A stretch of 64,000 bases of DNA from the NCBI GenBank assembly GCA_038727705.1, contig JAVYVJ010000001.1, positions 543,924 through 607,923 on the forward strand, read 5' to 3'. Shown here one piece after another: positions 5,141 through 28,393 of this stretch. Each line of letters opens with the position of its first letter. Within the stretch, counting starts at the first letter, position 1. A model generated the notes under the pieces. The model was not told the DNA's origin and searched no databases. It was given only the letters and a program-made list of their open reading frames with translations. Source of the stretch: Zestosphaera sp. Lineage in GTDB: Archaea > Thermoproteota > Thermoprotei_A > Sulfolobales > NBVN01. The position numbers were made by a program, and so were the translations under genes.

Positions 5141-5193
5141 TATAGAGTATTAAATATAATTGCAGGCCCCTCGTTAATTACTTGGGTACCTAA

Positions 5194-8339: not shown

Positions 8340-8353
8340 TTAAGATCTCTTGC

Positions 8354-8641: not shown

Positions 8642-8719
8642 GCACCACGTGATATACTTGTGATTGCTTTTCCTTTTAAGGGGTGAGGAAAGTCGAGGGT
8701 GTGCAACTGTTTTAGTGTG

Positions 8720-9925: not shown

Positions 9926-9994
9926 GGCAGACCGTGGGGAGGGGGCTCAGGGAAACCGTGATGCCCCGCCCTAGGAAAACCTACAAAAACCTAG
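8720..9994 (-). mobile_element. IS element encoding a TnpB/OrfB-like protein, bounded by 25-bp imperfect terminal inverted repeats
   Basis: 8720-8744 (CTAGGTTTTTGTAGGTCTCTCTAGG) is the reverse complement of 9970-9994 (CCTAGGAAAACCTACAAAAACCTAG) at 22/25, with a perfect 16-nt core. The single ORF fills the element. Confidence 0.6.
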
Positions 9995-10177
9995 AGCGGG
10001 AAACGGTGTGGGGTGAATTCATTTAGTGAATTCAGTGCCTAAGAATACCCAGGAGTATTGCTTCACTCAGCTCGGTCCCCACGTTGCGCAGGCTCTTATG
10101 CCGTAATACCTCCCTTCTTTAACGGTGTTAAAGCTGTTTAGGGAGTTGGTTTATATGCAACAATCTACTCATATATC

Positions 10178-10639: not shown

Positions 10640-10747
10640 CCTCACGTTTTTCTTAAGGTCGGTATATTCCGCATATGAAACTATAATAAAATACGCTGCT
10701 AAGCCGAAGCGCAGAATTAATTTTATTATTGAAGCCATAAATATCTA

Positions 10748-10825
10748 GGGCCCGTGGCCCAGCCAGGATAAGGCGCCGGCCTCCGGAGCCGGAGACCCCG
10801 GGTTCAAATCCCGGCGGGCCCGCCA
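10748..10825 (+). tRNA. tRNA-Arg (anticodon CCG), CCA encoded
   Basis: GGGCCCGTGGCCCAGCCAGGATAAGGCGCCGGCCTCCGGAGCCGGAGACCCCGGGTTCAAATCCCGGCGGGCCCGCCA. It folds as acceptor GGGCCCG/CGGGCCC, anticodon stem CCGGC/GCCGG with loop CTCCGGA, and T arm CCGGG-TTCAAAT-CCCGG. Confidence 0.92.
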
Positions 10826-10944
10826 CACCCATGCAGTGAACTCCATGGGTAAGGGGAGCTGGGCGACTTCTTGCTAAGAACCTTCAAAATCTTAGCCCTC
10901 ACTGAGTGTGAGATGATTGTAGAGGGTAAGACCTGTGATAGTCT

Positions 10945-12084
10945 CTAGATGTTCGCTGATGCCGCTCGGTATATTGGATCTATTATCACGTAGTTCTCAC
11001 CTACCTTCTCAATTAACCCGAACGCGCTTAGTCTCCTTAAAACCTCGTTGAACGCTTTATCCTCGATAGTTCTTCCCTCAACCCTCTCCAGGGTTTTCTT
11101 TAGTTCGCTCCAGGACATCCCGCCGGTGCTCAACGTCTTGAGGACGTTCCTGTACCTACTGCTCTTCAACTCGCTCAGCAGGTTCGTTAGCTCGGTTCCC
11201 GCTAGACTTACTGCCTTGTTGAATACCTCTTCTAGGTCTCCAGCAGTTCCCGTGATGTATGAGTAGCCGAAGAAGGTCAGCCACCCTATAATACCGTCTA
11301 ACCTACTCACTGCCTCCCTTATTAATTCCTCGTTATAATGTGCTCTAGCCTCCTCAAATCCTAGCCTGAGGAACTCCGCGCCCTCCGACTCACTGAGTCT
11401 CCTTGTCTTGACCTCGAGGTACGGCCTCCCATAGAGTGGTGCCTCGGGGTCCTCCAGCCCTAGGAAGTCCTTCAGAATCCCGAACTGCGATCCAGTCAAC
11501 GTTAAGTTGACGTACTTTAAGTTATCGTAAACGTAAGCGAGGAATCTGTCGAATCTAGCCCAAGTAGCTTTCCTCAAGTCCTGTGCCTCGTCAAAGACCA
11601 GGATCACTGGGGAGCCGATGTCCTCACCGAACTCATTGAGCCTTAGGAAGAGGTCTTGAAGGTCAAGTTTCCCGTTACCTCTGAAAACCACTGAAACCGA
11701 GTAATCCTTAAGACCTATAGTAACCCCCTTAACCATCTTCAAGTAACTTGCTAGAGCCTCCCTCAAATTAGTGTGCCTCCTCAAAGAATCCTCAAGCGAC
11801 TTCCCGATAACCCTGGCTATATCCTCAAATCCCGGATATATAGTGAATCGCGTGTCCAGGTAGATATACGGCGCGTTAACCAAGCTCAACCCAACCTTAA
11901 CCAAGGAGGTCTTTCCAGTCCTCCGAAGACCTGAAACCACGGTCAACCTAGACCTCACCACGTGATCAACAAATAACCTCAACTCATCACGGAAATCATA
12001 GAAGTCGTCAATCCTATCCTTAGGTATCGGATCGAATAACAGGGGTATCACCCAGTAACTATCGCTACCCCCAGTAATAAACAT
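10945..12084 (-). CDS. archaeal AAA+ ATPase (Arch_ATPase/DUF234-type, C-terminal wHTH)
   Basis: 379 aa with Walker A (GLRRTGKTSL), Walker B (LVFDEAQ) and a C-terminal helical/wHTH region. It abuts the trailer end of CRISPR array 1. Confidence 0.78.
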   Translation of the reverse strand: MFITGGSDSYWVIPLLFDPIPKDRIDDFYDFRDELRLFVDHVVRSRLTVVSGLRRTGKTSLVKVGLSLVNAPYIYLDTRFTIYPGFEDIARVIGKSLEDSLRRHTNLREALASYLKMVKGVTIGLKDYSVSVVFRGNGKLDLQDLFLRLNEFGEDIGSPVILVFDEAQDLRKATWARFDRFLAYVYDNLKYVNLTLTGSQFGILKDFLGLEDPEAPLYGRPYLEVKTRRLSESEGAEFLRLGFEEARAHYNEELIREAVSRLDGIIGWLTFFGYSYITGTAGDLEEVFNKAVSLAGTELTNLLSELKSSRYRNVLKTLSTGGMSWSELKKTLERVEGRTIEDKAFNEVLRRLSAFGLIEKVGENYVIIDPIYRAASANI

Positions 12085-12132
12085 TAACGCACAACAACCA
12101 ACGTAACGACTAAGTCTACGGACTTCTGGAAG

Positions 12133-15100
12133 CTTTCAGTCTTTTCTTATTGCTTCCGATGCGAACCGACACGAATATCTGAACCGCGTAGCTCTCTGCA
12201 ATCAATCTTTCAGTCTTTTCTTATTGCTTCAGACCCGTATGATAAATGGGTTGAGTGAGTTGAGAAGGATGTCTTTCAGTCTTTTCTTATTGCTTCTATA
12301 TAAGCATGACTGGTCGTTAGTAGAGAAAAACACATTTTTTGACCCTTTCAGTCTTTTCTTATTGCTTCTCATCTATTAACTGATCCCAGGAGATTATTCC
12401 GGCTTTGTATTGTTCTGTTAAGAGATTCCTTTCAGTCTTTTCTTATTGCTTCACCGAATTTCGCTCAGAACAAACCTGCTTCACCAGCTTTCAGTCTTTT
12501 CTTATTGCTTCGAACAAGATATTCGTACACCGGTGTAAACCTGGTGCCGCCGCGACACTCGCGGCTGAGCTCGCCGCGAGCCGCCAGCGCAAAGTGTAAA
12601 CCTGGTGCCGCCGCGACCGACGCTTTCAGTCTTTTCTTATTGCTTCATGAACGTGATAGATGATTCAGTCAAGCACGCGCTGGTTCAGGGAGCAACATAT
12701 GACTTTCAGTCTTTTCTTATTGCTTCTCATCATCGACTTTGATCATTGCCGAAACGTAATAGCTGCACTCGCCAACACTAATTGCTTTCAGTCTTTTCTT
12801 ATTGCTTCCCTGCCACTATCCGAACATGCGGCCTGCTCAGCGCCGCAATCACTAAATTCTTTCAGTCTTTTCTTATTGCTTCTTAAGTAATTACGTGAAG
12901 CTAGTCCCGGGAGTCAGGAAGACTTTCAGTCTTTTCTTATTGCTTCTATTTCAACCTCTTCATAGTCCGTGTAACTAGGTAAGTCCTTCATGAATGTGTC
13001 CACCTTTCAGTCTTTTCTTATTGCTTCATATATCCACTAAGAACTGAGGGCACTCAACCTCATACTTTCAGTCTTTTCTTATTGCTTCATTTCGTGTCGT
13101 TTTAGCGATCCTGATGTGAACATACATGTTTATATCGACTTTCAGTCTTTTCTTATTGCTTCAAAGCAAAATCACAGCTCTCATAACTACGAGACCTCTT
13201 TCAGTCTTTTCTTATTGCTTCCTCACCTCGCAACGATTGCGTTTCTGAACTTTTTGCCCGTCGAAACCAAGATGACGTCTTTCAGTCTTTTCTTATTGCT
13301 TCACGCCTTGCGGATATCGCGCGACGCGTCCAGACGAACGCTGACTGACCTCTTTCAGTCTTTTCTTATTGCTTCGTATATGATCATGCTCGACAGACGT
13401 TGGGCGTACATCATTCTTTCAGTCTTTTCTTATTGCTTCAGTGCCGATCGTCACAACACATCACGCGACGCTCAATCCTGCGAATCCGTATCAGACGTTA
13501 GCGGACATGCGTGGCGGCGTTGCAGTGTATCATTACCTTTCAGTCTTTTCTTATTGCTTCATTGACGGTGTTCATTGACGGTGGCAGTGTTCGTGTGCTT
13601 TCAGTCTTTTCTTATTGCTTCTCAACACCAGCAGCGTAGTCACCTGAAGCTGCGCTCTTTCAGTCTTTTCTTATTGCTTCACAGACTCGTCGTCCGGCGA
13701 GCCGCGAATCGCGTAGACTTTCAGTCTTTTCTTATTGCTTCGCCACTGACAGCTGAACGACTAAACAAGTCGAACAGCCTGCCCGCCTGACTCTTTCAGT
13801 CTTTTCTTATTGCTTCCCTACACACTAATATACGACGTGCTAGTAAGCTCAGGATGTAGGGGGACTGACTTTCAGTCTTTTCTTATTGCTTCTAAGTTAA
13901 GAACGATAAGCGCTTTCAGCCTTTTAGTCAGGACTTTGAGGAATTTGCTTTCAGTCTTTTCTTATTGCTTCTCAATGCGCCAATGCTCTGAGCCTTGATG
14001 TCCACAGCCAGGGACGCTATTGTCTGCTTTCAGTCTTTTCTTATTGCTTCACTGGAGTAAATGATTCCCCCCTTAACAACCCCCCTACTAATTTAGAAAA
14101 AGCTTTCAGTCTTTTCTTATTGCTTCAGTCTTTTAAGTGTTATCTCCGTCTCCTCCAGCAGTTCCCTTAAGTACTTGATATCTTTCAGTCTTTTCTTATT
14201 GCTTCTTACGTCCTCGTTCATGCTCCCAGTAGAGCTTGCCGCATATTTTGCTTTCAGTCTTTTCTTATTGCTTCAAGGACATGTCCTCACATATGTCGGC
14301 AGGTCGGACGTGGCCGAGAGCAGTAGATTCCTTTCAGTCTTTTCTTATTGCTTCAGAAAAAGAGGAATTTAAGATTTGCGCAACGCGCCAGCAACCTTGA
14401 ATATCACCGTGCCCAGCAACAGAATTGAGAGCATCTCTTTCAGTCTTTTCTTATTGCTTCACTCTCAGATCTTCAAGAGTTCCTGTCAGGTAGTTCAGCT
14501 TTCAGTCTTTTCTTATTGCTTCTGACCCGAGCAAGCCAGTCAAGATCATCGAGAGGAAAGGTCAAGGTATTTTTCTGCAGTTCTACGACGTAGAGGGGAG
14601 ACTGCATGCTTTCAGTCTTTTCTTATTGCTTCGAATACCGCATTGTCCCCAGAGCTGACCGTCAGAGCGATGCCGCCCGGCAAATCTTTCAGTCTTTTCT
14701 TATTGCTTCAGTTAAGCTTTTACGCATCAATAACCGATGCTACGAGTGCCAGAAACGTGGTTCTTTCAGTCTTTTCTTATTGCTTCACCACAACCGAGGA
14801 GGAAATAGACGTAGTACCTGACGACGTATTAACGCGCACCTTTCAGTCTTTTCTTATTGCTTCGCATTTAGCGTTAGAAGATGCAGACGATGTGTTAAAG
14901 CTTGAGATAGACTTTCAGTCTTTTCTTATTGCTTCACTCGTAACTGAGTTCGAGAAAAGAAATAAGTTTGTGGGGGGCTGGGCAGTCACTTTCAGTCTTT
15001 TCTTATTGCTTCCGTTATTGTTGGTGTTCACACTCACATTGCTGACCACGTTAGAAGCGATGTTATCCTTTCAGTCTTTTCTTATTGCTTCGGATTAGAC

Positions 15101-15659
15101 AAGACCCTCATTGTAATAAGCTACGTAAAACACGGCACAAGACTTAGCCTACTTTCAGTCTTTTCTTATTGCTTCCTACAGCCTACTACGTGCTTGGATT
15201 GCCCGAGGTTGGATTACTACCCACTTTCAGTCTTTTCTTATTGCTTCTATAGTGTCCAGTTTCGGTATGGTAGTCTTTTTCTGTACCCCGCTCTTTCCTC
15301 TTCTTTCAGTCTTTTCTTATTGCTTCGCAAACAACTTCGCCGAGAAGCGGCGATACGTCGACACAGACTTTCAGTCTTTTCTTATTGCTTCTCCTGAGTC
15401 AGTTGAAAGGCGATTGGCGCGGTCTAGCGGTGGCGTTAGTGCCGAAGAGCGTGAACTTAAAGATCTTTCAGTCTTTTCTTATTGCTTCTCACTTACTCGC
15501 GCGGTGCTCAGTCGAAAGTCGTTGAATCATTGAGTGCGGTCGGCGACTCGGCGTTCACTTTCAGTCTTTTCTTATTGCTTCTCCTAACATACTCCTCCAG
15601 GGATAGGTACGCGCAATACTCACACGACCTTCCAGCTTTCAGTCTTTTCTTATTGCTTC
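12133..15659 (-). CRISPR. CRISPR array 1: 46 identical 24-nt repeats and 45 inter-repeat segments, transcribed on the minus strand (leader at 15660-15728)
   Basis: The plus-strand repeat is CTTTCAGTCTTTTCTTATTGCTTC, which is GAAGCAATAAGAAAAGACTGAAAG in crRNA sense. The hand-counted inter-repeat lengths from 12157 rightwards follow. 50,42,48,60,35,111,56,58,50,40,57,37,50,35,57,49,40,97,37,35,37,51,52,55,55,52,55,45,56,82,38,86,53,53,53,48,53,55,60,48,55,41,73,69,54. Confidence 0.97.
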
Positions 15660-15728
15660 CTGTCATTGTTTTGTGCTGGTTGTTTATAAATTTTTGTTGA
15701 TCGATTCCGGAAAATCCATCAAGCCTCC
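15660..15728 (-). promoter_or_regulatory. CRISPR leader 1 with TATA box (TTTATAAA, 15683-15690) and palindromes ATCGAT / TTCCGGAA (15700-15712)
   Basis: A 69-nt AT-rich segment lies between the cas1 stop and the first repeat. The TATA box is about 24 nt from the first repeat. The sequence is the exact inverted copy of leader 2. Confidence 0.75.
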
Positions 15729-16718
15729 TTAGGAACCGGATGTTGGGTCATAGATATAGGGCTCGTATTTAAGTTTCTTTAAGATGGAGTCTTTAAATTT
15801 TCCTATATCTCTTAGCGGTAATATCCATATCGACTTTCTGTTGTAGAATCTTTCTGCTTCCCGTGAGAGTCGGTTGTAAAGGTGTCCAACTAAGATCTCG
15901 ATCGTTTTAGGGCTTAGCATCCTGGAGCCTCTTAGCGTCTTTAACTTTGTTTTTCTGCTTGCTTGTATAACGCTATGCACGGCTAGTGGCTTGAAAATTT
16001 CCGATAAGTCATACGTTAGTGACACTCGCCCACTTCTTAGTGCGTGTATTAGCCCGTAGAAGGGATCTAGTCCTACGGTAACTATCGACTTGGTTATAAT
16101 TCCGTAGAGTATGGCGTAGAGGAAGTCTATCGAGGAGTTTATAACATCACCTCTTCGTGGCTCTCTGCCCGTGAACCCATATTCTGGCAGTATGAGGTTA
16201 GTGGCGACATTCCAGAAGTATTTAGAGCCAACTGCCTCCAGTTTCCGGAGCTCATCAATGTTGTTGGTCTTTTCTACGAACTCTAAAACCTCTAATATCT
16301 TTATTTTTACGTCCTCGTAATCCTTCATCAAGTCTTTATAGTACTTGTACTCGTATCTCAGAACGTTATATAGACCCCTAATCTTTGAGTATATGATTGA
16401 CCTGGCATACATCGCCCTGCAGGCCTCGTCTGAGAAGCACCTGTACTGCACTTCTCTAATGTTGATGGTTCCAACCTGAACGACATCATAGAGAACTCCA
16501 TAGGTGTCCAGCTTTCCCGAGATGAACACTATCGGTATGCCGTTCGAGAGAAGAGTTATCACCGCTGAAGACGTTACCAGAACTCTCTCACCAACGACAA
16601 TTACTAGCTCTAGGTCCGGTACGGATGCCTCCACGCTGTTACCTTCTTTGTCTGATACAAGGATATTGCCTTCCTTCCTATATATCTTCGATGTTCCCTC
16701 AACGACCAGTATCGTCAT
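15729..16718 (-). CDS. cas1: CRISPR-associated endonuclease Cas1
   Basis: 329 aa with a Cas1 pattern (N-terminal beta domain, EAVGSKYFW, GLIHALRSGRVSLTYDLSEIFKP). It is adjacent to the leader. Confidence 0.92.
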   Translation of the reverse strand: MTILVVEGTSKIYRKEGNILVSDKEGNSVEASVPDLELVIVVGERVLVTSSAVITLLSNGIPIVFISGKLDTYGVLYDVVQVGTINIREVQYRCFSDEACRAMYARSIIYSKIRGLYNVLRYEYKYYKDLMKDYEDVKIKILEVLEFVEKTNNIDELRKLEAVGSKYFWNVATNLILPEYGFTGREPRRGDVINSSIDFLYAILYGIITKSIVTVGLDPFYGLIHALRSGRVSLTYDLSEIFKPLAVHSVIQASRKTKLKTLRGSRMLSPKTIEILVGHLYNRLSREAERFYNRKSIWILPLRDIGKFKDSILKKLKYEPYIYDPTSGS

Positions 16719-16728
16719 TAGGGATCAC

Positions 16729-17352
16729 CTAGTGCGTGTATGGGCACACCCTCCTTATCGGGGGGTCGCAGAACGCGCATATCTCTCCGCTAGGCGGTTC
16801 AGGCTCTTTCTCATCGGACAGTGTCTTCATCAGCCTGGAGATGACCTTCATCAGGTCACGCCCGGACACACTAGCATCACTACTCATTACCAACACGTCC
16901 TCGACTGTGTCATGATCCCTCACTATTACCAGAACCGGCACGATTGGGAAACCGATCTCCCCGTATAGAGCGGAGGCATATGACTGTAACCGGTGTCGCA
17001 CAACTCTTGAGGCTTCCTTATATTCCGTGACCTCGAACAGCACGGTGAACAGAGACCCTCTGAAGTAGACTAAGGTGGCTAGGTCTATCCTTCCCCTGAG
17101 CAAGATACCCCACGTGCGTGTGCCATTCTTGAGGACTGCTGAGAGGGCAACGTCTTTTTCATTGTAGGTGCTCAAGACTTTTCCTCCAGCGTGGTGAATG
17201 CTATTCTCGACCATGGTTTCAAACAGTTTCCGTAGTACAGTCCATGCCTTCTTTCCGTGGACTTCAGCCGGGGTGGGACTCGCTTGGAGGGTTGTCTGAG
17301 CTCTCAGCCTCACTCTCATTCTGCATATTGCTAGGTCGTCCAGCACCTTCAT
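16729..17352 (-). CDS. cas4: CRISPR-associated exonuclease Cas4 (RecB-like, Fe-S cysteines)
   Basis: The preferred start is ATG at 17352 (MKVLDDLAICRMRV..., N-terminal Cys). The C-terminal cluster is C-x2-C-x8-C (EICAFCDPPIRRVCPY). The 304-aa track ORF (to 17643) extends upstream in an alternative frame across cas2 and looks like non-protein sequence there. Confidence 0.8.
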   Translation of the reverse strand: MKVLDDLAICRMRVRLRAQTTLQASPTPAEVHGKKAWTVLRKLFETMVENSIHHAGGKVLSTYNEKDVALSAVLKNGTRTWGILLRGRIDLATLVYFRGSLFTVLFEVTEYKEASRVVRHRLQSYASALYGEIGFPIVPVLVIVRDHDTVEDVLVMSSDASVSGRDLMKVISRLMKTLSDEKEPEPPSGEICAFCDPPIRRVCPYTH

Positions 17353-17662
17353 CGGTAACTCTAGCTCTGTGCACACCGTAGAAGGCGATGACTGGCATCC
17401 TCTCACCACGTATGGATACAGACCTCTTGGCAACCTCCACGAGAAGCTCATACTGAAAGTCGTTGAGGAGGATAACAGTCGCTCTATCTCCTTCGTCAAG
17501 CAATCTAGATAGATGCGAAGAGATTCTCTCGGCGAGTGTTCTCGACCCTCTTCCAACGTAGACCGAGTAGGTGAGCATCGTGAACGAATACTTTCTAAGT
17601 AAACGCCTAACTTTCCCCCTCGTCCTCTCGTCTCTGCAGTCATACGTCACCACCAGGAACAA
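17264..17662 (-). CDS. cas2: CRISPR-associated endoribonuclease Cas2 (with about 40-aa Ser/Glu-rich tail overlapping the cas4 start)
   Basis: The N-terminus MFLVVTYDCRDERTRGKVRRLLRKYSFTMLTYSVYVG is a typical Cas2 ferredoxin-fold start. The ORF runs 89 nt past the cas4 ATG. Confidence 0.8.
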   Translation of the reverse strand: MFLVVTYDCRDERTRGKVRRLLRKYSFTMLTYSVYVGRGSRTLAERISSHLSRLLDEGDRATVILLNDFQYELLVEVAKRSVSIRGERMPVIAFYGVHRARVTDEGAGRPSNMQNESEAESSDNPPSESHPG

Positions 17663-17673
17663 CGTGCATCGAC

Positions 17674-19929
17674 CTAGAGCAATAATAGATACGCGTATAC
17701 CTCACCCGAGCACTCCAACGCTATTGCCTCCCCGTATGCACGCAAAACCTCGAATACCGGCTCTTCCCCTCTAGTGTACTTCACATAAAGCGGCACTTTC
17801 ATCCTCTTAAGGATTTCAACTAGTTGACTATTAACGACGCCGGTCAATTCTATTGCTAGCCTGCTTGGAAGGATACTCTCACTAATACTACTCAGCACCT
17901 CTCTATTGGGGGCGCGCATTCCTACCGTGACTACGTCTTTTATTTTACTGCGCTTAACGTCCTTAATGACTAGCCTGAACCCGCTTGAGGTATCGACCTC
18001 GACCTCGTAGTTTGAGAGCAGGGTAATGGGACTAGACTCTCCGTCAATTTGGTTTCTACTACCAGCCCGCACATATGGAACGCTTGGAGAGAGCCTGAAG
18101 GAAGCTAACTCTACAAGCACGTCTGGGTTCTTTGAAACCCTTTTTCTAAGCCATAAGAAAAACTTCCTGTCTATTTCTATTGTCTGCAGGGTCTTCATGA
18201 ACTCTGAAAGCACAGGTTTTAAGTCGCGGGGTTTGTCTCTATGCCTCATAACTGATAGTAGTATATAGTTAGAGAGAGGTAAGTACAGTCTTAGCTTGCC
18301 AACTCTACTTCTCAGTATCACTCCGTCCCCAAGCTTCTTGATGACCGACTCCTCTGCCATGACCCATGAGAGGGCATTGACGAACTCACTGTATTGTATC
18401 GTGGATTTACCTTTAAGTCTATGAGTAATTAGAGTATTAGCGTAACTCTGGGGTATGAGTATTATGACCTTTGAGTCTATGCCTCCTCTACCACTTCTAC
18501 CCATCCTCTGAACAAGTTCCCCGAGACTTGTAGCACTAATTATGCTATAGAATATATTCTGGAGGTCTACACCCAGCTCAACAGCGTAGTTCCCGAATAC
18601 ATACAGGTCTCCACTTGCTCTCTTCGCCACCAGCTCTTCCTTGCCGTGGAATCCAGACGGAGATGTAAGCCCCATGACCACCGTCGGGGCAACACCTGTG
18701 TTCTCATTAAACATCTTAGCCGACTTTTCTACAGAGTAGACTCTCCTGCCGAACACGAGCGCCCTCTTATGTTTCAGGATTTCCTGCGACTTCGAGCCAA
18801 CAATGGTTGGCAGCCACTCGTCGAGCTCGATCCAAGCCGGGTAACCTGCTCGCTTCGTCTTTATAGAGACGAGTTCAACAATGGTCTTGCCCCTTATCTT
18901 GACGACTGATCCTTCATCACAGATTACGGCGTCGGCTCTTACCTGTCTAACAGCCGTGTTTCCAGCAGTCTTATCTACGATATCTAGAACGTATCGGCTT
19001 GGTGTCGCAGACGAGAAGACCACCTTATACATTTCGCTCCTAGTGGAGGTTAGCGAAGAGAGCCTGTGTAGTAGGACTAGTGATATGGCTGTTGGTAGCT
19101 CGTAGAAGCCCCAGGTGTGGAACTCGTCAAAAAAGAGCACAGGTGATAGGAGAGCTGATGAGAGCTCAGCCAGCTCCCTCTCCGCGACCCTGCCCTCTAC
19201 CAGCAATCTAACCCTCTTAACAATTTTCTCAACGTACTGTCTAAGCTCATCCTCATTGCTCATCGATGACAGCATTTTCTCGACAACCCTCTTAACGAAT
19301 TCCCCTGAAGACGTCAGATCTAGTAGCTTGGCTAGGTCGTGATGGCTTCTATACATATGGGAGAACATGAGGTAAGGGTACTCAGGAACAGCGAGGGTTA
19401 TTAGGTAGTCCACGCTCTCAGTTAACATGGTTCTGCGCATAATATCTAGAACGTGCCGTCCAGAACCCACACTCAGGGCATTCTTTAGCTTCTCGATAGT
19501 ATCCCTAGTAAGCAATACCATCCCTACCTTGTTCTTGTAGTATTTCACCTTCCCATCATTCCTCAAGACCTCGAACTCTAAATCATGGACTGCTACTCCC
19601 TGCCCAAGTTCTCTAGCCTCACTAGCAGATAGTTTTCCGAGGGTTGCTTTAAGAGACTCGAACTGGTCTACGGTCAGGGGCTTGGTTGGGTATATACCTA
19701 GGGCACCGTCATAGCTTGTTCCGTATAAAATGTTAGAGAGAAGAGGTGTGAGAAGTGTGAAGGTCTTACCCGACCCGGTTGGAGCTGTAAGGAAAAGGTA
19801 TTGATGAGGAGAATTAAAAAAATCTATCGTTTCTTCCTGAAATCTCCTTAAAGTGAGCTCTGCTTTGCCTCTCATCCTGATATTACCTAGCTCTACACAT
19901 ACCGGCTCTAATTCAATGGCGTAAGTCAA
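17674..19929 (-). CDS. cas3: Cas3' superfamily-2 helicase without an HD domain
   Basis: 751 aa with motif I (APTGSGKT), motif II (FFDEFH) and motif VI (QRMGRSGRGG). No H...HD motif occurs at either terminus. There is a long C-terminal extension. Confidence 0.85.
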   Translation of the reverse strand: MTYAIELEPVCVELGNIRMRGKAELTLRRFQEETIDFFNSPHQYLFLTAPTGSGKTFTLLTPLLSNILYGTSYDGALGIYPTKPLTVDQFESLKATLGKLSASEARELGQGVAVHDLEFEVLRNDGKVKYYKNKVGMVLLTRDTIEKLKNALSVGSGRHVLDIMRRTMLTESVDYLITLAVPEYPYLMFSHMYRSHHDLAKLLDLTSSGEFVKRVVEKMLSSMSNEDELRQYVEKIVKRVRLLVEGRVAERELAELSSALLSPVLFFDEFHTWGFYELPTAISLVLLHRLSSLTSTRSEMYKVVFSSATPSRYVLDIVDKTAGNTAVRQVRADAVICDEGSVVKIRGKTIVELVSIKTKRAGYPAWIELDEWLPTIVGSKSQEILKHKRALVFGRRVYSVEKSAKMFNENTGVAPTVVMGLTSPSGFHGKEELVAKRASGDLYVFGNYAVELGVDLQNIFYSIISATSLGELVQRMGRSGRGGIDSKVIILIPQSYANTLITHRLKGKSTIQYSEFVNALSWVMAEESVIKKLGDGVILRSRVGKLRLYLPLSNYILLSVMRHRDKPRDLKPVLSEFMKTLQTIEIDRKFFLWLRKRVSKNPDVLVELASFRLSPSVPYVRAGSRNQIDGESSPITLLSNYEVEVDTSSGFRLVIKDVKRSKIKDVVTVGMRAPNREVLSSISESILPSRLAIELTGVVNSQLVEILKRMKVPLYVKYTRGEEPVFEVLRAYGEAIALECSGEVYAYLLLL

Positions 19930-20638: not shown

Positions 20639-20665
20639 TTCGCTGATGCCCCTTCTTATCCTAGG

Positions 20666-21763
20666 TTACTTGGCGGTGATGTAGCTCTTTACGGCGTCTA
20701 TATAGTTCCTGGAGTTTGTCCAGAGCTCTTTTACTAGGTTAGCGTCAAGTATGTTTACGTTCTTCAGCTTAGCTAGGATATCCTCGGTTACCTCAACGAC
20801 TCCTGCTCCGGTGGCGTACGATACACTTCTTACGTATTCTAGGAGCTTCCTCCGAGCCTCTGCCTCGTTTGCTTCGCCTGCCAACCTCTCGGTGGCTTCG
20901 TAGGCTGAGCCGACTTCAAATAGGTCGGCTACGGTGGCTACGGGTACGACCTTGAGTGTCCCCCATAAAGATGTCCTCGCTCCTACTCTAATAGTTCTCG
21001 TCAGGAGCCAAAGGACGTACAGTAATTCTACTGGTGATGACATGAACAACACTACTTTACCTACGAAGAGTGTGCCGGGCTCTACGAAGGTCTCGGCGAA
21101 CAGGGCGCCTGTTCTCGCCTCCTCTCCCTCTGCTTTCTGACCTTCTTTAATCATTATCGTTGTGTAGGTAATCTCGTCTACGGCGTTCCCCGTCCTTCTC
21201 TCGTAGCTGGGAGTTAATGCATATGCCGAATCTCCGACAAACCTGCTGGCTAGGTTGTAGTTGGCGGCAGCACTCGTAGCACCCATCAATACGTCAGTTG
21301 GACACTTCATGCACCTGCCGTGCATTACGCCTTTTCCTTCGCCGGCTAGGCCTGGTGATATAGAGCAGGATGCTAGGAAGTCGTAGTTTTGATCGCCTAT
21401 AGCCGCCTTGATGACGCTATTATGTAACTCCCACTGTCTTCTCAGTAGCTGCATGAACTCCCTTAGGTACACAGCCTTCAGCTTCCTGAAAATGAGTGTT
21501 GGAACAGCCTCGCCGGCTGCTTCGCTCAGGATTATGTCGTCTTCTCCTTCCGTCCTCAGTATCATCCTGTCCTCTACTCTCCCGATCCAGTATATCGTTA
21601 TATGCTTTGCAACGGGCTTTACTGATTCTGTTCCCCCCGTGTATGTGTGTAGGTATGGTTCTATTTTCTTGAAGTTGTCGTCCCCTAACACTTCCCTAAG
21701 TTTTTTGATAGAGTTCTCGTATGGGGATTTGACTTGGGGTTGGGTCTGGGACATTGATTTCAC
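20666..21763 (-). CDS. cas7: Cas7-family backbone protein, Csc2-like (type I-D-like) with a Cys/His cluster
   Basis: 365 aa carrying C-x14-H-x2-C-x2-C (SCSISPGLAGEGKGVMHGRCMKCPTDVLMGA) followed by RTGNAVDE. It lacks the Csa2 (I-A Cas7) signature segments that I remember (LNG..S.GN, ISGEALAH). Confidence 0.6.
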   Translation of the reverse strand: MKSMSQTQPQVKSPYENSIKKLREVLGDDNFKKIEPYLHTYTGGTESVKPVAKHITIYWIGRVEDRMILRTEGEDDIILSEAAGEAVPTLIFRKLKAVYLREFMQLLRRQWELHNSVIKAAIGDQNYDFLASCSISPGLAGEGKGVMHGRCMKCPTDVLMGATSAAANYNLASRFVGDSAYALTPSYERRTGNAVDEITYTTIMIKEGQKAEGEEARTGALFAETFVEPGTLFVGKVVLFMSSPVELLYVLWLLTRTIRVGARTSLWGTLKVVPVATVADLFEVGSAYEATERLAGEANEAEARRKLLEYVRSVSYATGAGVVEVTEDILAKLKNVNILDANLVKELWTNSRNYIDAVKSYITAK

Positions 21764-21768
21764 CTCTT

Positions 21769-22203
21769 TTAGGATTTCTTCTCAAGCGGTTCAATGGAGA
21801 CGCTTGAAAGTAGCCCAGTCGCAAGTCCTATCAGTAGAATCCGCATGTTTTTCAGCATTTTGAAGGCTCCGACCGGGTTTATCGACTTCTGCATTGCTAC
21901 GTAGTCAACCAAGTTTATGGCCGCTTCCTTTACCGTATTTCTCTCCTGCTCGTCGGCGAACCCGTAGTGCCTCGCGAACAAGTCCATTATCTTGGCAACA
22001 GTATCTGCCTTACCGCCGGAGCCCGCTAGGAACTCCTCTAGGGGGTTGAATATCCTTGCTATGTGGTGTCTTGACACTCTCTCCCCCCTGGTCTTACTCC
22101 TGATGTAGTTAGCTATAGTCTCCAGCGGCTTTACGTACCTCATCTCGCTTGGGTAGATCTGTAGTCTTATCCTGGACTGGGTTTGGGGTTGGGGCACGGA
22201 CAT
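21769..22203 (-). CDS. putative Cascade small subunit (Cas11/Csa5-like), by position
   Basis: 144-aa, mostly helical ORF between the large subunit and cas7. There is an SD-like GGGGTGGGA upstream of its ATG. The call is positional only. Confidence 0.45.
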   Translation of the reverse strand: MSVPQPQTQSRIRLQIYPSEMRYVKPLETIANYIRSKTRGERVSRHHIARIFNPLEEFLAGSGGKADTVAKIMDLFARHYGFADEQERNTVKEAAINLVDYVAMQKSINPVGAFKMLKNMRILLIGLATGLLSSVSIEPLEKKS

Positions 22204-22215
22204 ACCATCCCACCC

Positions 22216-22231
22216 CTTTTCTTATTGCTTC
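22216..22231 (-). repeat. 16-nt partial CRISPR repeat (GAAGCAATAAGAAAAG, the 5' two-thirds of the repeat) at the large-subunit/small-subunit gene junction
   Basis: Plus strand CTTTTCTTATTGCTTC at 22216-22231 is identical to positions 1-16 of the repeat in crRNA sense on the cas coding strand. It overlaps the large-subunit TGA stop (22230-22232). Confidence 0.85.
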
Positions 22232-24275
22232 ACATGAGCTTCCTAAGCATGTACGAATAAACGTCCAGAGCCGGGGCACCAGTGGTTATGAGCCCACTCT
22301 TCGTGAACCTGGTCTTACCTATCTTTACCTCTGCCTCATCTAGGTTCATGACGTACGTCCTCAGTTGCTCATATAGTATTCTCCTCAACCTCCTTGTCCT
22401 GCTCCACTCGTTTCTCTCCCTAGCTATCTTCAGCTCTCGTACGAAGTGGAGTACGGACTCCTCCATAACGACGTCGCTAACCTCCATCTCTATGGGTAGA
22501 CCGCTCCAGGGTGGTGGCATGCTCAGAGCATTGGTCGTCAGTACGAGACTCCCGCCAATGTAGTACCAGAGGTCTAGTGCTGTTAGCAGGTCGCCTTTTC
22601 CAAGGCGTCCACGCTCATCCGATGTCTTAACTATTATTCTGCTGGAGACGTAGTCTGGTATAACCAAAGGTTTTGTCTCTTCCTTTTTCTTTCTCTTCAG
22701 TCCAAGAACCACGTATTCTCTGGCGACCTCTCTGACTATCTGCAGCAGGTCCGTGCTCATAGCCGGGTAGTAGATTATGTTTGATGCCCACATGCCGTCA
22801 AAGAAGGATGTTGTAGCTGGAAAGATTATTGATTCGTACTCGCACACTGGACAGATGGGCACGCTGTCCGAGAAACCCTCTAAGGCTCTGTAGTCATCTG
22901 GTCTACCCTGTCTGTCTGGGTGGAATAGCTCGGAGACGTTTATATCCAGAATACGCTTGAATCTATCAAGGTATGCTCGCAGGGTTCTTGTTTTCGAAAC
23001 CCTCTCTCGACAGATAACACATACCGCTCCCTCTTTAGGTCTCTTCTGGGCACTTCCTGTTATACCGAAGTACCTGATGCTAATTGTTTTCTCAACCACT
23101 TCTTTCACATCGCTAACGTCAACTTCTGCTGACAGCATCCTCTTAACCAGCTTATCCTTAGTCCTCTCTACCAAGTTGCTTAAGTCTTGAGAACCGAACT
23201 CATTGAGGTGGTTGGAGAGGTTTTTGATTACTTCTTGAACGTCTTTACCTCTGATGAACCCCAGCTCAAGTTCGCTGAGAGCTTCTCGAAGGTTCTCTTT
23301 TACGCTACCGAGTGTTTTCGCATAGGTGAGCACCGACCATATAACTAACAGTACCTTGTCTGCTGGTGTGGTATAGGTTCTGAAGGTCTCTTCTATATCG
23401 CTGATGCTGAGCTGACGTAGGTTTGGTAATGAACTTATAACCCGGCCGGTGTTCAGCTTCTTATCACCAGCGTGAACGATGCCATCAACAGACCTTAGGC
23501 TTGCAACCTTAGGCTTACTGGTGGTGGTCGGTGCTAGCGCTTTTGTAACTTCGTTAGAAATGTAGTTAGCTAGACCGTCGTATAGTTTCTTAATATCGTC
23601 GCCTCCGATGCAACTTCTAGATAAGTACAGAGAACCTGTCGGAGTAGAGACCAGCGGTGTGAGCTCGGCCTCCATAAGTATTTCATTAAGTTTTTCAGCA
23701 ACTATCGCGATAATAGGTCTCTGCTTACCTATAACCACAGGGACTAGGTGGTGCTTCACGCCAAGCTTACTCAGCGTCTCTCCGACTTTATCCATAACAT
23801 ACGCTATGTTCCAGCTCTCTTCCCCACCGGTTAGGTAGTCCCCGAGCCTAACGAACTCGGCAATAACTTGAAGTCTTCTCGGGAGCCCACCGCTCTCCAG
23901 CTTCGAAGCTACCTCCAGAGCATCGTCAAAGCGCCCACCGAGATACCCGTCTAAAACATCGTATAGTCTCTCATTAGCAAAGACCTCGTCTGCTTTTTCC
24001 TTAAGAATCTGAAGACTTAGCCTCATCTTTTCGTAATCGTGTAGGAGACCAGCTAGAAAAGCTGTTGCCTGTTCGTACTCGCTCATCTCGGAGAACTCTG
24101 CTAGTCTAGCCGCTATGAAGGCTGCGCCGAAGAAGTGCTGAAGACCTGAAATAAGATATGATTTAGGATTGCAAGGAAGTGCATAACCGTATACACCAGT
24201 TTCTATCTTATTTGGGATGAGCTTCGTGATGTCACTCGCAATGGCTTCTCTCAGCTCTAAAATGAAACTCTCCAA
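22230..24275 (-). CDS. Cascade large subunit (Cas8/Cas10d-like) with an N-terminal HD-nuclease-like motif and a zinc finger
   Basis: 681 aa with a TTG start. The N-terminal QHFFGAAFIAARLA...AGLLHDYEK resembles Cas3 HD motifs I and II. The central CVIC...x~60...CPVC forms a zinc-ribbon pair. It is the first gene of the interference operon. Confidence 0.6.
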   Translation of the reverse strand: MESFILELREAIASDITKLIPNKIETGVYGYALPCNPKSYLISGLQHFFGAAFIAARLAEFSEMSEYEQATAFLAGLLHDYEKMRLSLQILKEKADEVFANERLYDVLDGYLGGRFDDALEVASKLESGGLPRRLQVIAEFVRLGDYLTGGEESWNIAYVMDKVGETLSKLGVKHHLVPVVIGKQRPIIAIVAEKLNEILMEAELTPLVSTPTGSLYLSRSCIGGDDIKKLYDGLANYISNEVTKALAPTTTSKPKVASLRSVDGIVHAGDKKLNTGRVISSLPNLRQLSISDIEETFRTYTTPADKVLLVIWSVLTYAKTLGSVKENLREALSELELGFIRGKDVQEVIKNLSNHLNEFGSQDLSNLVERTKDKLVKRMLSAEVDVSDVKEVVEKTISIRYFGITGSAQKRPKEGAVCVICRERVSKTRTLRAYLDRFKRILDINVSELFHPDRQGRPDDYRALEGFSDSVPICPVCEYESIIFPATTSFFDGMWASNIIYYPAMSTDLLQIVREVAREYVVLGLKRKKKEETKPLVIPDYVSSRIIVKTSDERGRLGKGDLLTALDLWYYIGGSLVLTTNALSMPPPWSGLPIEMEVSDVVMEESVLHFVRELKIARERNEWSRTRRLRRILYEQLRTYVMNLDEAEVKIGKTRFTKSGLITTGAPALDVYSYMLRKLM

Positions 24276-24367
24276 TCTTTACACCAAAATAAGATTTGGA
24301 ATGAAAGTTTATAAATCTTGTTTAAAGATATACATTAGAATGAGGGAGAGAATTAGGGCGTAAAACT
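24276..24367. promoter_or_regulatory. bidirectional promoter region between the interference operon and csa3 (TATA boxes TTTATAAA at 24308-24315 and TTTAAAGATA at 24321-24330)
   Basis: AT-rich 92-nt divergent intergenic region. The palindromic TTTATAAA could serve the minus-strand operon (TTG start 24275). The second TATA is about 40 nt upstream of the csa3 ATG. Confidence 0.55.
24283..24307 (+). repeat. degenerate CRISPR-repeat-like element in the cas promoter (AATAAGA-tttg-GAATGAAAG)
   Basis: 24288-24294 (AATAAGA) equals repeat positions 6-12. 24299-24307 (GAATGAAAG) matches repeat positions 16-24 at 8/9. Block spacing is 4 nt instead of 3, and the first 5 repeat positions do not match. 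Confidence 0.45.
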
Positions 24368-25042
24368 ATGAGGCTCTTCGCCATCACTGTCGGCTTTGAT
24401 GAGAAACTCTCGATCAGGGGGTTGCTGAAGATCGGCGTAAACGTAGATGACGTTATTATGTTAGTTTATTCTAAGAGCGGTGGTGAGTTCGAGGTTAGAA
24501 AGGTTGAGAAAGCTGTTGAGACTGTTAAAGACTTGGTTGTTAAGACGGGAGTTAAGGTAGTAGACGTTGCAGTTTCAGGGATGAATTTCTACGAAGACGC
24601 TACTATAGTGCTTAGGGCTTTAAGAGAGCACCCAGCAGGAGAGGTTATAGCATTACTCGCCGGGGGAATGAGGCTAATTATATTTGAGGTGCTGACCGCC
24701 GTATTACTGTACAGCAGTCTCTCGGGCATCAGAGCCAGGATTCACTTGATGCGTGAGGACGGACTGTACGATGTTGCTCTACCCACTGAGGTTTTCCGAA
24801 TATCTATTACTTCTAAGGATGCCGCCGTATTAAGGGTTCTCTACGAAAAAAGAACTATGAAGAGAAGTCATCTCGTTGAGAGCGTTTCACGCGAGACTGG
24901 GATCTCTGAATCAATGGTGTACAAGGTAATTAAAAACCTAACTGGGAAGGGACTCATAATAGTTGATGGTGATACTCTCACGCTTACTGATCTCGGACGC
25001 CTTGTTTGCGAAGCTCTTGAAATAGAGAAGAAGGGAGAGTGA
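24368..25042 (+). CDS. csa3: Csa3-type CRISPR locus transcriptional regulator (CARF domain + wHTH)
   Basis: 224 aa with an N-terminal Rossmann-like CARF pattern (MRLFAITVGFDEK...LLAGGMRL) and a C-terminal wHTH (RSHLVESVSRETGISESMVYKVIKNLTGKGLI). Confidence 0.8.
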   Translation: MRLFAITVGFDEKLSIRGLLKIGVNVDDVIMLVYSKSGGEFEVRKVEKAVETVKDLVVKTGVKVVDVAVSGMNFYEDATIVLRALREHPAGEVIALLAGGMRLIIFEVLTAVLLYSSLSGIRARIHLMREDGLYDVALPTEVFRISITSKDAAVLRVLYEKRTMKRSHLVESVSRETGISESMVYKVIKNLTGKGLIIVDGDTLTLTDLGRLVCEALEIEKKGE

Positions 25043-25049
25043 TGAGAGA

Positions 25050-25970
25050 ATGGAGAGACGTCTGTTCAAGGCTACTGTTACAATTGGAAGGAGTGCTGAA
25101 AAGCATTCAAAGAAACTAAGAGATTTAGAGGAAGTATTTACGGGTAAGCTCGTGAAGTCTTTAATCATAGACGGTAATCCCCTGTTAAGGCAGTTCTTTG
25201 AGAAGATGTCTGGAAGCGCTCCTAAATTGGTCCACGTTTCCCCCCTCTACGTTGAGAGAGTAATCGATGGAAGAAAGCAGGTAAAGTGCATCTACGTATA
25301 CAGAGATGACAGCAATAATGAAATGGCGAGATATAGCTTCTATATAGGGCTAGTCGAATCTAATGCCATATACAGTCCAACCTCGGATGACGTGTATCAA
25401 GCTCTACTTAATCTATCCGGACACCATCGCTTTAAGGCTCAAGTTCTTGATATAGAGCTCATCTCCGTAGAAGAGATAGATGTGGTGAGAGATATCAAGA
25501 AAGTAGTCTCGGATCTTAGTAGACTAAAAAAGATGAAGATAGTGTTCTCTTCCCCCACACTTCTAAGAGACCCGCTCAGGAGAGGCAAGCATAAATCACT
25601 AACCCCAACACCCATAAACATCTTCTCCACACCAGTTTACATAAACCTGTACCTCACCGGTGCTCTTAGGTGGAAATCATTCATCAGAACACTCATCATC
25701 CTACATAGACTACTCAATGAGCCGTACTCTACTCACAAGACAACAAAGATTACGTGGGTAAGATACAGCAAAGACAAGAACCCCATACCCACACTTACAG
25801 GTTATGTAAACCTCTTCCTTAATGAATACTACTACAACCAACACGCAAAACATATAAACATAGGGTCACTTCTGGAAGAAACCCTTTCAACAATCCTCAC
25901 ACTAGGAACGGGAACATCAAGAGCAACAGGCTTTGGACACATCACGCTTGCAACACCATCCGGTTCCTAA
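25050..25970 (+). CDS. cas6: Cas6 crRNA-processing endoribonuclease
   Basis: 306 aa with a C-terminal glycine-rich loop (GTGTSRATGFGH) typical of Cas6. It is immediately upstream of leader 2. Confidence 0.85.
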   Translation: MERRLFKATVTIGRSAEKHSKKLRDLEEVFTGKLVKSLIIDGNPLLRQFFEKMSGSAPKLVHVSPLYVERVIDGRKQVKCIYVYRDDSNNEMARYSFYIGLVESNAIYSPTSDDVYQALLNLSGHHRFKAQVLDIELISVEEIDVVRDIKKVVSDLSRLKKMKIVFSSPTLLRDPLRRGKHKSLTPTPINIFSTPVYINLYLTGALRWKSFIRTLIILHRLLNEPYSTHKTTKITWVRYSKDKNPIPTLTGYVNLFLNEYYYNQHAKHINIGSLLEETLSTILTLGTGTSRATGFGHITLATPSGS

Positions 25971-26039
25971 GGAGGCTTGATGGATTTTCCGGAATCGATC
26001 AACAAAAATTTATAAACAACCAGCACAAAACAATGACAG
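25971..26039 (+). promoter_or_regulatory. CRISPR leader 2 with TATA box (TTTATAAA, 26009-26016) and palindromes TTCCGGAA / ATCGAT (25987-25999)
   Basis: A 69-nt segment between the cas6 stop and the first repeat, with the TATA box about 24 nt upstream of the first repeat. It is the exact reverse complement of 15660-15728. Confidence 0.75.
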
Positions 26040-28043
26040 GAAGCAATAAGAAAAGACTGAAAGACACAATACAATACATTACTATCCCGAAAAATATTGG
26101 ACAACATAAGAATAGAAGCAATAAGAAAAGACTGAAAGCATTTCTTGAGGTGAGTGCATGAGTTCAGGAGTCGTGAAGGACGTGATAGTGAAGCAATAAG
26201 AAAAGACTGAAAGTATAAAGCTCGGACTCATTGATTATCCCTCGCCTGAAGGCATATATTGCGAAGCAATAAGAAAAGACTGAAAGCGATCCACGGATAA
26301 TAGATGCATTCCGACTGAGTGTTGAACGGACAGGCGCCGAGCGAAGCAATAAGAAAAGACTGAAAGACTGGACACTATACATATTCAAGAATAAAAACAA
26401 CTTCACAATAAGAATAACGAAGCAATAAGAAAAGACTGAAAGGATTTTCTGTAGTGGCTCCAGACGCTCACCAGTGTTTGCGTCTATTACTATAGAGAAG
26501 CAATAAGAAAAGACTGAAAGAAAGAGGCCAACGCGGCGTATAAAAAGAGACTAGCGTACAAGAATTGGACGCGAAGCAATAAGAAAAGACTGAAAGGTGG
26601 ACTGGTCCTCTGGCTACACTGGGACTCGATAGACACCGCTAACAACGTGTGAAGCAATAAGAAAAGACTGAAAGTACTTCGACGGGGCTGTCGGAGGTAT
26701 ATTCGACGTGATAAGAAATGCCTGAAGCAATAAGAAAAGACTGAAAGACGACCCCAGGTCGTGCACGTGTCCGCCCATGTAGAGACAAACACGAGGGTCC
26801 CACCAGAAGCAATAAGAAAAGACTGAAAGAAAGTTGTTTGTATGTAGCTCTCTGTTTGTATGGGCTGGTTTACTGTAAGTTTACAGAAGCAATAAGAAAA
26901 GACTGAAAGAGTCCGTTCATTCCGACGGGCTTCGGCAGGACGAGCAAACATATGACGATGAAGCAATAAGAAAAGACTGAAAGAAGTACTTATCCACAAT
27001 CGTCAAGAGTCCGTCAAAGGAAGCAATAAGAAAAGACTGAAAGCTCTTACCAACACCGCGTAGCTGTGCTTCAAGCTCTGTCCTCGGAACAGAGAAGCAA
27101 TAAGAAAAGACTGAAAGGTACATCACCATCATTCACATTCAGCGTATCAATGGAGGGTAAGAGCTGATGAGCGAAGCAATAAGAAAAGACTGAAAGAGAA
27201 CTGGGATTACTGGGACCACTGAATTCAAACTTATTACCCCCATAGGGAAGCAATAAGAAAAGACTGAAAGGCTACGACGCGGGCCTCGAATCAATGTGCA
27301 AAGCAAATGGGATAGGGTATGAGGGAAGCAATAAGAAAAGACTGAAAGTGCTCTACTCCTCCACTTCTCAATTATCTTATCCAACGGAGAAGCAATAAGA
27401 AAAGACTGAAAGATCATTCATTCCGGACGGCGTCGCGGACGAGGTGTTGATGAACGACTGCCTCGAGCACGAAGCAATAAGAAAAGACTGAAAGTTCTGC
27501 GTCAGCGGGCACTAATTCGCTCTTTTTTCGAAGCAATAAGAAAAGACTGAAAGCGAGCCTGCTGCAAACAGGAACAACATGCCGGAGCTGAAGCAATAAG
27601 AAAAGACTGAAAGCTCTACACAGCGCTCAGCTCAGGAGCATCGGTCTACATTCCGACGGACGCGTGAAGCAATAAGAAAAGACTGAAAGATGATCAACGA
27701 TATGATGCCCGAGCCGCCTATAATGAAATAAAGTTTGCCGTCCGTCCTGAAGCCCGACACCACCGCCCCCGTCGGCAGACTGAGCATCGTGTCTAGGAAC
27801 GCCATGATGCGCTGAAGCAATAAGAAAAGACTGAAAGACGGACTGACTTCGCCGTAGCGGTTCTCGGGAAGAACAACGTTTCTGAAGCAATAAGAAAAGA
27901 CTGAAAGATGTATGAGAAGCAGTTCGGCAGGCGCGTCTCGTTCGGCGTCATTCTTTAGAAGCAATAAGAAAAGACTGAAAGATGGCGTGCGGCGTTCCGG
28001 TCGTTGCTGGATACTATACGAAGCAATAAGAAAAGACTGAAAG
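26040..28043 (+). CRISPR. CRISPR array 2: 27 identical 24-nt repeats and 26 inter-repeat segments, transcribed on the plus strand
   Basis: The repeat is GAAGCAATAAGAAAAGACTGAAAG. Hand-counted inter-repeat lengths from the leader are 51,51,49,56,52,54,52,54,49,58,56,50,36,50,55,50,54,40,58,35,36,52,124,46,50,38. Confidence 0.97.
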
Positions 28044-28235
28044 ATCTATGTTGAATCACCTAGGAAAAGAGGATATATGAAAGGAATTTAAAAACTTCAT
28101 GGACTTTCCATAGAAAAATGTCGAGCTCCAATCAATGAAGTAGTAGTATATGATATGTTAAGGTAATATCACAATATAAAGTATGTTCATATATTAAGCA
28201 TATTTCCATGGAACTTCAGGACGTACGTGTTCGAG

Positions 28236-28279
28236 CCTGCGGAGCCGGAGATCCCGGGGTTCAAATCCCGGTGGGTTCG
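28236..28279 (+). other. degenerate 44-nt copy of a tRNA-Arg 3' half (anticodon loop to acceptor 3' strand); att-like direct repeat of 10780-10822
   Basis: CCTGCGGAGCCGGAGATCCCGGGGTTCAAATCCCGGTGGGTTCG aligns with tRNA-Arg CCTCCGGAGCCGGAGA-CCCCGGGTTCAAATCCCGGCGGGCCCG at about 38/44 (5 substitutions, 1 indel) in the same orientation. The 5' half is missing and the T loop is distorted, so it is not a functional tRNA. Confidence 0.7.
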
Positions 28280-28393
28280 TCTTTGAGTTGCTGTGATTGA
28301 CCCCGGTTATCTCGCGAGACTCATATTGAAAGTAAAGCTTATATTCCAGCACTGTTGCTATCGCATTTCGGGTGATGGAAGGTACTAGAGTCT

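Follow-up and report, generated by a model that had tools for sequence, protein, structure and literature searches.

In an uncultured hot-spring archaeon of the genus Zestosphaera (Desulfurococcaceae), a 17-kb type I-D CRISPR (clustered regularly interspaced short palindromic repeats)-Cas locus with two arrays is bracketed by an intact tRNA-Arg(CCG) gene and a partial copy of the 3' half of a tRNA-Arg gene. The locus lies in a 64,000-nt stretch of contig JAVYVJ010000001.1 (assembly GCA_038727705.1), here called the window, whose coordinates are used throughout; L-numbers denote loci fetched from the metagenome-assembled genomes (MAGs) and metagenomes of relatives. Taken together, the data give roughly even chances that the tRNA gene and the half-tRNA copy are the left and right attachment sites (attL and attR) of one old integration, with the integrase lost and the contents of the intervening slot fixed and reshuffled. 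The locus occupies a known type of gene-capture hotspot. It is a probable rather than a demonstrated decayed member of the tRNA-island class, because the integrase is absent and no clean empty site was found.

The bracket itself is clear. The tRNA-Arg(CCG) gene is the sole tRNA called by ARAGORN and Rfam in the window. Local alignment of this gene to both strands of the window returns a single outlier at 28235-28275 (score 60, with the next best at 26). Together with the acceptor strand and the CCA-equivalent, the copy spans 48 nt and has the orientation of the intact gene. It begins on the 5' side of the anticodon stem (tRNA position 32) and is identical to the CCG tRNA at 39/44 positions up to the discriminator base, plus one inserted G. 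The 31 nt immediately 5' of the copy, read by eye, match the tRNA 5' half at only 8/31 positions; as this is a random level, the 5' edge is sharp. Archaeal integrase att sites measure 40-50 bp (PMC8371274), and the agreement in length supports an att reading. A first-pass annotation of this DNA had reported an intact tRNA-Arg(CCG) with a partial direct copy downstream (28236-28279, about 38/44 identical, GCG at the anticodon position) and had placed the ATPase gene, both arrays, and all cas genes between the two. Each of these statements holds, the coordinates being one base off; the enclosed content was confirmed from the open reading frames (ORFs) and domains of 10945-28043.

The same annotation took the copy for a decayed CCG tRNA, and this does not survive. 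The half-tRNA scores 70 against a Zestosphaera tRNA-Arg(GCG) gene (from L029), as compared to 60 against the CCG gene, and across the full 3' half including CCA it matches the two at 42/47 and 40/47 positions, respectively. Two positions separate the GCG and CCG genes, G34 in the anticodon and AGATC in the variable loop. Because the half-tRNA agrees with the GCG gene of the genus at both, its GCG anticodon is not the product of decay from a CCG copy. It departs from the GCG gene only by the inserted G, by C-to-T changes at three acceptor-strand positions, and by having TCT for CCA. The half-tRNA could be the attP sequence of an element, or it could be the relic of a separate tRNA-Arg(GCG) event.

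Evidence that integrases use this tRNA gene comes from a second MAG of the same species (L012, GCA_038734565.1). This locus is 99.9% identical to window 191-10825 and unrelated to it after the last base of the tRNA. Past the tRNA lies the N-terminal part of an integrase whose full-length homologues (~390-420 aa) carry PF16795, an archaeal phage-integrase catalytic domain that was confirmed on the L046 integrase (E=1.2e-20). The tRNA-Arg(CCG) gene has thus served as an attB within the species of the window. The L012 integrase gene is frameshifted at L012 11283-11300, with ~9 residues missing relative to homologue P0191, and may be a pseudogene or an assembly error. The L012 element is also found after tRNA-Arg(GCG) in L029 (Zestosphaera sp. 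GCA_038824165.1), with 96.8% identity over 601 nt that include the bases directly past CCA, and a related integrase follows tRNA-Arg(CCG) in L028. These three loci indicate that the PF16795 family uses several tRNA-Arg isoacceptor genes, the 3' halves of which are almost the same. In each locus, the tRNA beside the integrase keeps its own anticodon and variable loop. Strand exchange is thereby placed 3' of the variable loop, unless every attP corresponded to the tRNA that it entered.

Scanning metagenomes for 3' halves of the GCG type recovered 36 loci, most of them full tRNA genes. The partial copies in L048/L058 and L057 share the first nucleotide of the half-tRNA (GCCT, tRNA position 32) and extend as far as the 3' end. 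Directly after the partial core of L048/L058 comes a PF16795-family integrase. The corresponding full tRNA, again with an integrase, is found in L046, where the element also carries a DNA methylase and a primase-polymerase and on that account looks plasmid-like. As the partial cores share its 5' boundary, the half-tRNA has the anatomy of an att core of the PF16795 family. The integrase ORF of these relatives is unsplit and begins 55-200 nt past the att core (L012, L028, L029, L046, L058). Two further loci, L066 and L067, added no information, one being a contig end and the other lying in a rearranged context.

In the L029 locus, tRNA-Arg(TCG) is followed in order by ~630 nt, a C-terminal cas1 remnant (residues 228-329), a leader, two repeats, 31 nt, tRNA-Arg(GCG), and the integrase element (L029 8626-10430). 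The repeats are identical to the window repeat, and the whole is a vestigial CRISPR between two tRNA-Arg genes. An apparent decayed integrase N-terminus past tRNA-Arg(TCG) was seen by eye in the translation of this locus; tblastn did not recover it at E<=1 and it was not used. A non-coding stretch of 158 nt is ~90% identical between two genera (L029 9095-9252 and L009 12219-12376). Its copy in L009 adjoins a TIM-barrel gene, and it matches no Rfam family in either locus.

If the bracket is a true att pair, the sequence of events may have been as follows. A PF16795-family tyrosine integrase, of the kind that targets the tRNA-Arg isoacceptor genes of the genus, would have acted at the tRNA 3' half. 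As this family has att cores of the GCG type, an incoming element with such a core as its attP would have used tRNA-Arg(CCG), with strand exchange 3' of the variable loop; a crossover at that position would leave the left-hand tRNA CCG-type throughout and the right-hand core GCG-type. Later, the integrase gene would have been lost, the att core would have gained its C-to-T changes and one inserted G, and the ATPase, two arrays, and cas genes would have been fixed in the chromosome. Finally, homologous recombination would have reshuffled the slot DNA between strains, giving type I-D here and type III in another. The bracket, its att-like anatomy, the use of this tRNA by an integrase in a conspecific, and the lack of CRISPR-Cas at the site in the sister species are observations; we infer that both ends derive from one event, that the crossover lay at this position, and that CRISPR-Cas occupied the slot from the outset.

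The conspecific strains indicate that the slot does vary in content. Two loci are close to the window (L017, 99.99% identical; L018, 99.7%) and carry the half-tRNA unchanged. The 191-nt stretch between the last repeat and the half-tRNA, possibly the far arm of an integrated element, is identical in L017, 99.5% identical in L018, and absent from L016. The 119-nt spacer after the tRNA is 98-99% conserved in L021 and L023. A 97-kb contig of a different strain (GCA_038828365.1), of which L016 and L021 are two sections, has the left flank, tRNA, and ATPase of the window (99.4% identical up to window 12116) and also keeps the AEC permease and right flank. Between these, a type III module (Cas6, RAMPs, Cas10, Csx1) replaces the I-D cassette (L016 6498-14876; L021 13808-20450), no array follows the ATPase, and two degenerate repeats stand at the right end. 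The ATPase, the first gene inside the bracket, is therefore common to strains with either cas module.

The right junction of this type III allele is informative about its history. L016 can be aligned to the window from 28282, the last base of the half-tRNA. Identity is 79-85% over 28282-28393 and at least 98% from the start of the AEC gene onward, which marks the L016 allele as an old and divergent form of the slot, imported by homologous recombination. Because an array trailer lies near the junction in both divergent alleles, the link between array and junction is old as well. Two other strains show irregularities at or near the bracket. At L023 782-859 (window 10748-10825; MAG GCA_038880135.1), the tRNA has the anticodon TCG, a single C-to-T change from CCG; the change could reflect a genuine switch of isoacceptor, exchange with an att of the TCG type, or an artefact of the MAG consensus. 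In L020 (MAG GCA_038881155.1, 4134-6032), identity ends at window 29542, just past the TIM-barrel gene, and gives way to GC-rich DNA with a prolyl-tRNA synthetase. This breakpoint was set aside as evidence, as the contig is probably rearranged or chimeric.

In two relatives outside the species, the site lacks CRISPR-Cas. A sister species (L025/L026, ~75% amino-acid identity) has the left-flank genes of the window and tRNA-Arg(CCG), followed by 3.4 kb with two small genes and pieces of an amidohydrolase pseudogene, and then the TIM-barrel, DUF1152, and proteasome alpha genes. Between these shared flanks there is no ATPase, CRISPR-Cas, AEC permease, or half-tRNA. In the more distant L008, both flanks are joined within ~3.8 kb, with neither tRNA nor CRISPR. 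Other relatives (L013-L015, L027) have no tRNA at the site, and a genome scan with DUF1152, in which the closest relatives are ~69% identical and mostly non-syntenic, recovered no tRNA in L001-L011. As the sister species and L008 join the flanks without CRISPR-Cas, the CRISPR block is lineage-specific at this site. The first-pass annotation had considered that the locus might instead be vertically conserved here with no empty variants; L025/L026 and L008 show otherwise. Its prediction of an empty site in which the tRNA is directly followed by the AEC permease fared less well: no such site was found, since the sister species lacks the AEC gene as well.

Several observations weigh against a single att pair. 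The search with tblastn for five integrases of the family across the window gave a best hit of E=1.6, with none near the borders; Pfam and NCBIfam scans of the ORFs found no integrase domain. The first-pass annotation had likewise seen no integrase ORF or fragment. Split int(N) or int(C) fragments, as expected from SSV-type integration, are found at neither border. The sequence at 10826-10944 is unrelated to the post-tRNA sequence of L012, L028, and L029, so that the loss of an integrase-proximal arm would have to end exactly at the tRNA. A clean empty site, namely tRNA-Arg(CCG) followed by TTTGAGTT... and the AEC permease, was not found among the relatives, and the sister species lacks the AEC permease, the expected original neighbor of the tRNA. 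The type III allele of L016/L021 has no recognizable half-tRNA. The flank after the fragment, compared alone with the post-tRNA flank of the sister species, shows no significant similarity (p 0.1-0.4). The integrase-bearing loci fetched from the PF16795 family contain no cas genes or arrays. Finally, the full tRNA-Arg(GCG) directly past an array trailer in L029 offers an independent route to a GCG-type half.

Further comparisons of the junctions and possible carriers gave little. A 28-nt stretch of L016, tested alone as a decayed core, is also not significant (p 0.1-0.4). The L016 sequence across the right junction aligns weakly with the sister tRNA 3' end and its downstream flank (p ~0.02); this test was post hoc and is suggestive only. 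The stretches 10826-10944 and 28044-28234 and the flank after the core have no match in any fetched locus outside the species, and the att upstream arms of L048, L057, and L058 align to the 191-nt arm of the window at the level of noise. Viral-contig scans with the CCG 3' half, the half-tRNA, the L012 integrase, and a 16-integrase alignment returned no match, IMG/VR included, and INPHARED phages searched with the integrase gave none.

The strongest rival is that the half-tRNA is unpaired with tRNA-Arg(CCG) and the bracket coincidental. The fragment would then be a relic, at the trailer end of array 2, of a tRNA-Arg(GCG) gene or of the attR of an element in such a gene, later deleted. Consistent with this proposal, both diagnostic positions of the half-tRNA are of the GCG type, the ancestral neighbor of tRNA-Arg(CCG) in the sister species is not the AEC gene, and the L029 array with identical repeats ends 31 nt before a full tRNA-Arg(GCG) in equal relative orientation and accompanied by an integrase element. 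On this explanation, an essential tRNA gene must have been lost or must have existed in two copies. The 36 metagenome tRNA-Arg(GCG) loci are all free of a downstream AEC permease and of any neighboring CRISPR array. By our own estimate, chance would place a half-tRNA in direct orientation less than 20 kb downstream from a compatible tRNA-Arg gene in only ~2% of cases, and the sharp 5' edge at the att boundary favors an att core over a truncated gene. We regard the unpaired relic as possible, and as less probable than the att pair.

That the CRISPR-Cas genes were themselves the cargo of an integrated element is a separate claim, and a doubtful one. The first-pass annotation had proposed that the module arrived as, or on, a tRNA-targeting element. 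The att-shaped half-tRNA, the use of the tRNA as a target in L012, and the absence of CRISPR-Cas from the sister species favor this proposal, while its cargo status, the origin of the fragment from a CCG copy, and the AEC empty site were not borne out. The only hint of cas genes on such an element is the cas1 remnant, leader, and two repeats between the tRNA-Arg genes of L029. Composition counts in favor of the single-integration reading. In a check that the earlier annotation had suggested, the tetranucleotide L1 distance of the cas block from the rest of the window is 0.188, versus 0.106 +/- 0.009 for control chunks, 0/300 of which reach it; the shift is modest but clear, and the GC content at third codon positions (GC3) is somewhat lower. 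The full version, in which the 17-kb type I-D locus and its two arrays were cargo of a PF16795 element hopping between tRNA-Arg CCG, GCG, and TCG genes, and the att slot now exchanges cas modules (I-D or III) between lineages, must be held just as tentatively.

One alternative accepts the attL/attR pair and makes CRISPR-Cas a later occupant: the element would have decayed to the ~190-nt arm and the core, and the ATPase-CRISPR-Cas block would have recombined in afterward. In line with this, conspecifics carry different cas modules between one pair of ATPase and AEC flanks, the L016 allele is an old divergent import, and the PF16795-family elements here carry methylases and a primase and no cas genes. 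This course needs two events where one suffices, and the array trailer lies near the junction in both divergent alleles, so that the link is old. It is accordingly unlikely, and more so than the unpaired relic. Split tRNA genes exist in some Crenarchaeota. A functional 3' half of a split tRNA-Arg(GCG), whose three acceptor-strand C-to-T changes would be accommodated as G-U pairs by a standard 5' half, is nevertheless very improbable given the extra G in the T arm, TCT for CCA, no 5' half in the window, no call by ARAGORN or Rfam, and a conspecific (L016) without the half-tRNA; chance resemblance is excluded by the alignment score (60 vs 26).

The features of the bracket, the slot, and the adjoining right flank are collected in the table.

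Table. Features of the tRNA-Arg bracket, its contents, and the adjoining right flank (window coordinates)
Feature	Coordinates	Strand	Evidence or remark
Intact tRNA-Arg(CCG); candidate attL	10748-10825	+	ARAGORN; Rfam 59 bits; proven strain-level breakpoint at last base
Spacer from tRNA to ATPase stop codon, 119 nt	10826-10944	.	No integrase remnant
AAA ATPase with MCM-type C-terminal winged helix	10945-12084	-	Pfam MCM_C 1.5e-10, AAA_16, AAA_14, AAA_22
CRISPR array 1, 46 identical 24-nt repeats, leader adjoining cas1	12133-15659	-	
Type I-D cas genes: cas1, cas4-like ORF (304 aa), cas3', csc1/cas5d, csc2/cas7d, 144-aa ORF, cas10d with HD motif	15729-24275	-	Pfam, NCBIfam, PADLOC
csa3 regulator and cas6-like gene	24368-25970	+	Csa3_N 9.7e-16; TIGR01884 2.5e-18; cas6 8.8e-4 (weak)
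CRISPR array 2, 27 identical repeats (GAAGCAATAAGAAAAGACTGAAAG), trailer end towards half-tRNA	26040-28043	+	
AT-rich non-coding stretch from last repeat to half-tRNA, 191 nt	28044-28234	.	
GCG-type tRNA-Arg 3'-half copy, anticodon stem/loop to CCA-equivalent; candidate attR core	28235-28282	+	Local alignment
Right flank: 111-nt intergenic stretch and AEC-family permease, frameshifted (ORFs 28394-28795, 28734-29291)	28283-29291	+	Pfam Mem_trans

The cassette is type I-D: Cas10d with an HD motif, Csc2, Csc1, and the Cas3' helicase are all present. The Csc2 match (1e-25) exceeds the NCBIfam cutoff. Those of Csc1 (9.5e-10) and the I-D Cas3' (7.2e-16) fall slightly under the curated cutoffs, and Cas10_Id (2.4e-4) and HD (4.8e-3) are weak matches. 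No separate cas2 ORF was recognized in 15650-26050. In the cas4-like ORF (16729-17643), the Cas4 match covers only the C-terminal ~two-thirds (residues ~100-300; NCBIfam match 181-301) and leaves the N-terminal ~100 aa outside. Exact protein look-up, a metagenome scan, and a search of PLSDB plasmids found no relatives of the ATPase.

The minus-strand reading of array 1 is inferred from the convention of GAAAG-ending repeats. All 73 repeats of the two arrays, those at the trailer ends included, are identical. Spacers are unusually long and variable, most being 35-60 nt and seven 69-124 nt. One 111-nt interval in array 1 (12498-12608) contains an internal 24-nt duplication (12533-12556 and 12594-12617). 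Compared with all fetched loci, the spacers give self and strain matches only.

To the left of the bracket lies a conserved 149/153-aa gene. To the right, the AEC permease is followed by the TIM-barrel gene, DUF1152, proteasome alpha, SBDS, and exosome genes. In the window and L017, which are almost identical, the permease falls into overlapping ORFs of 133 and 185 aa, and in the conspecific L016 and L018 it is intact (278 aa); the split form is either a frameshift pseudogene or a sequencing error. Upstream of the tRNA, a 1301-bp indel (8704-10004) carries a 401-aa gene, with an SSO2105_N domain in the L012 gene call. Both the window and L012 have this insert, whereas the conspecific L021, L022, and L024 lack it. 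At its junction, the blast segments share 6 nt of overlap.

The arrangement resembles known cases of archaeal gene capture. Capture linked to tRNA genes by SSV-type and pNOB8-type integrases was described by She et al. (2001-2004) and has been reviewed (PMC8371274). As in the window, captured genes in Sulfolobales lie between an intact tRNA and a 40-50-nt copy of its 3' half in the same orientation, with tRNA-Arg among the targets, and are trapped in the chromosome once the integrase is gone, a mechanism to which the window slot can be likened. Unlike these cases, the window contains no integrase or fragment of one, and its right copy is GCG-type as compared to the intact CCG gene. The PF16795 domain, of the SSV/pTN3/pT26-2 type, has been linked to "suicidal" integrases (PMC8371274). 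The integrase genes of the relatives differ from the SSV type in that they are unsplit and start after the core.

Integrated elements with CRISPR-Cas are documented in archaea and, like the window, place a complete cas set with arrays in a chromosomal island. Those elements are type I-B and keep their integrases and recognizable borders, whereas the window has type I-D (type III in the sister strain), a Desulfurococcaceae host, a missing integrase, and a putative cargo role for CRISPR-Cas. Bacterial genomic islands with CRISPR-Cas, as in Vibrio (PMC6360697), are likewise strain-variable and tRNA-linked; they belong to another domain of life and use other integrase families. As both tRNA-linked capture and complete CRISPR-Cas loci on archaeal integrated elements are already documented, current views are unchanged. 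The use of several tRNA-Arg isoacceptors by one element family and the right core of another isoacceptor type are neat details and introduce no new principle.

Should the att pair be genuine, it would show how an entire adaptive-immunity locus can be acquired and fixed by a crenarchaeal genome via a tRNA-targeting integrase, and near-identical tRNA-Arg isoacceptor genes would be interchangeable landing sites. The slot, with its I-D and III alleles between shared flanks, would then provide a concrete locus for studying the exchange of cas modules between strains.

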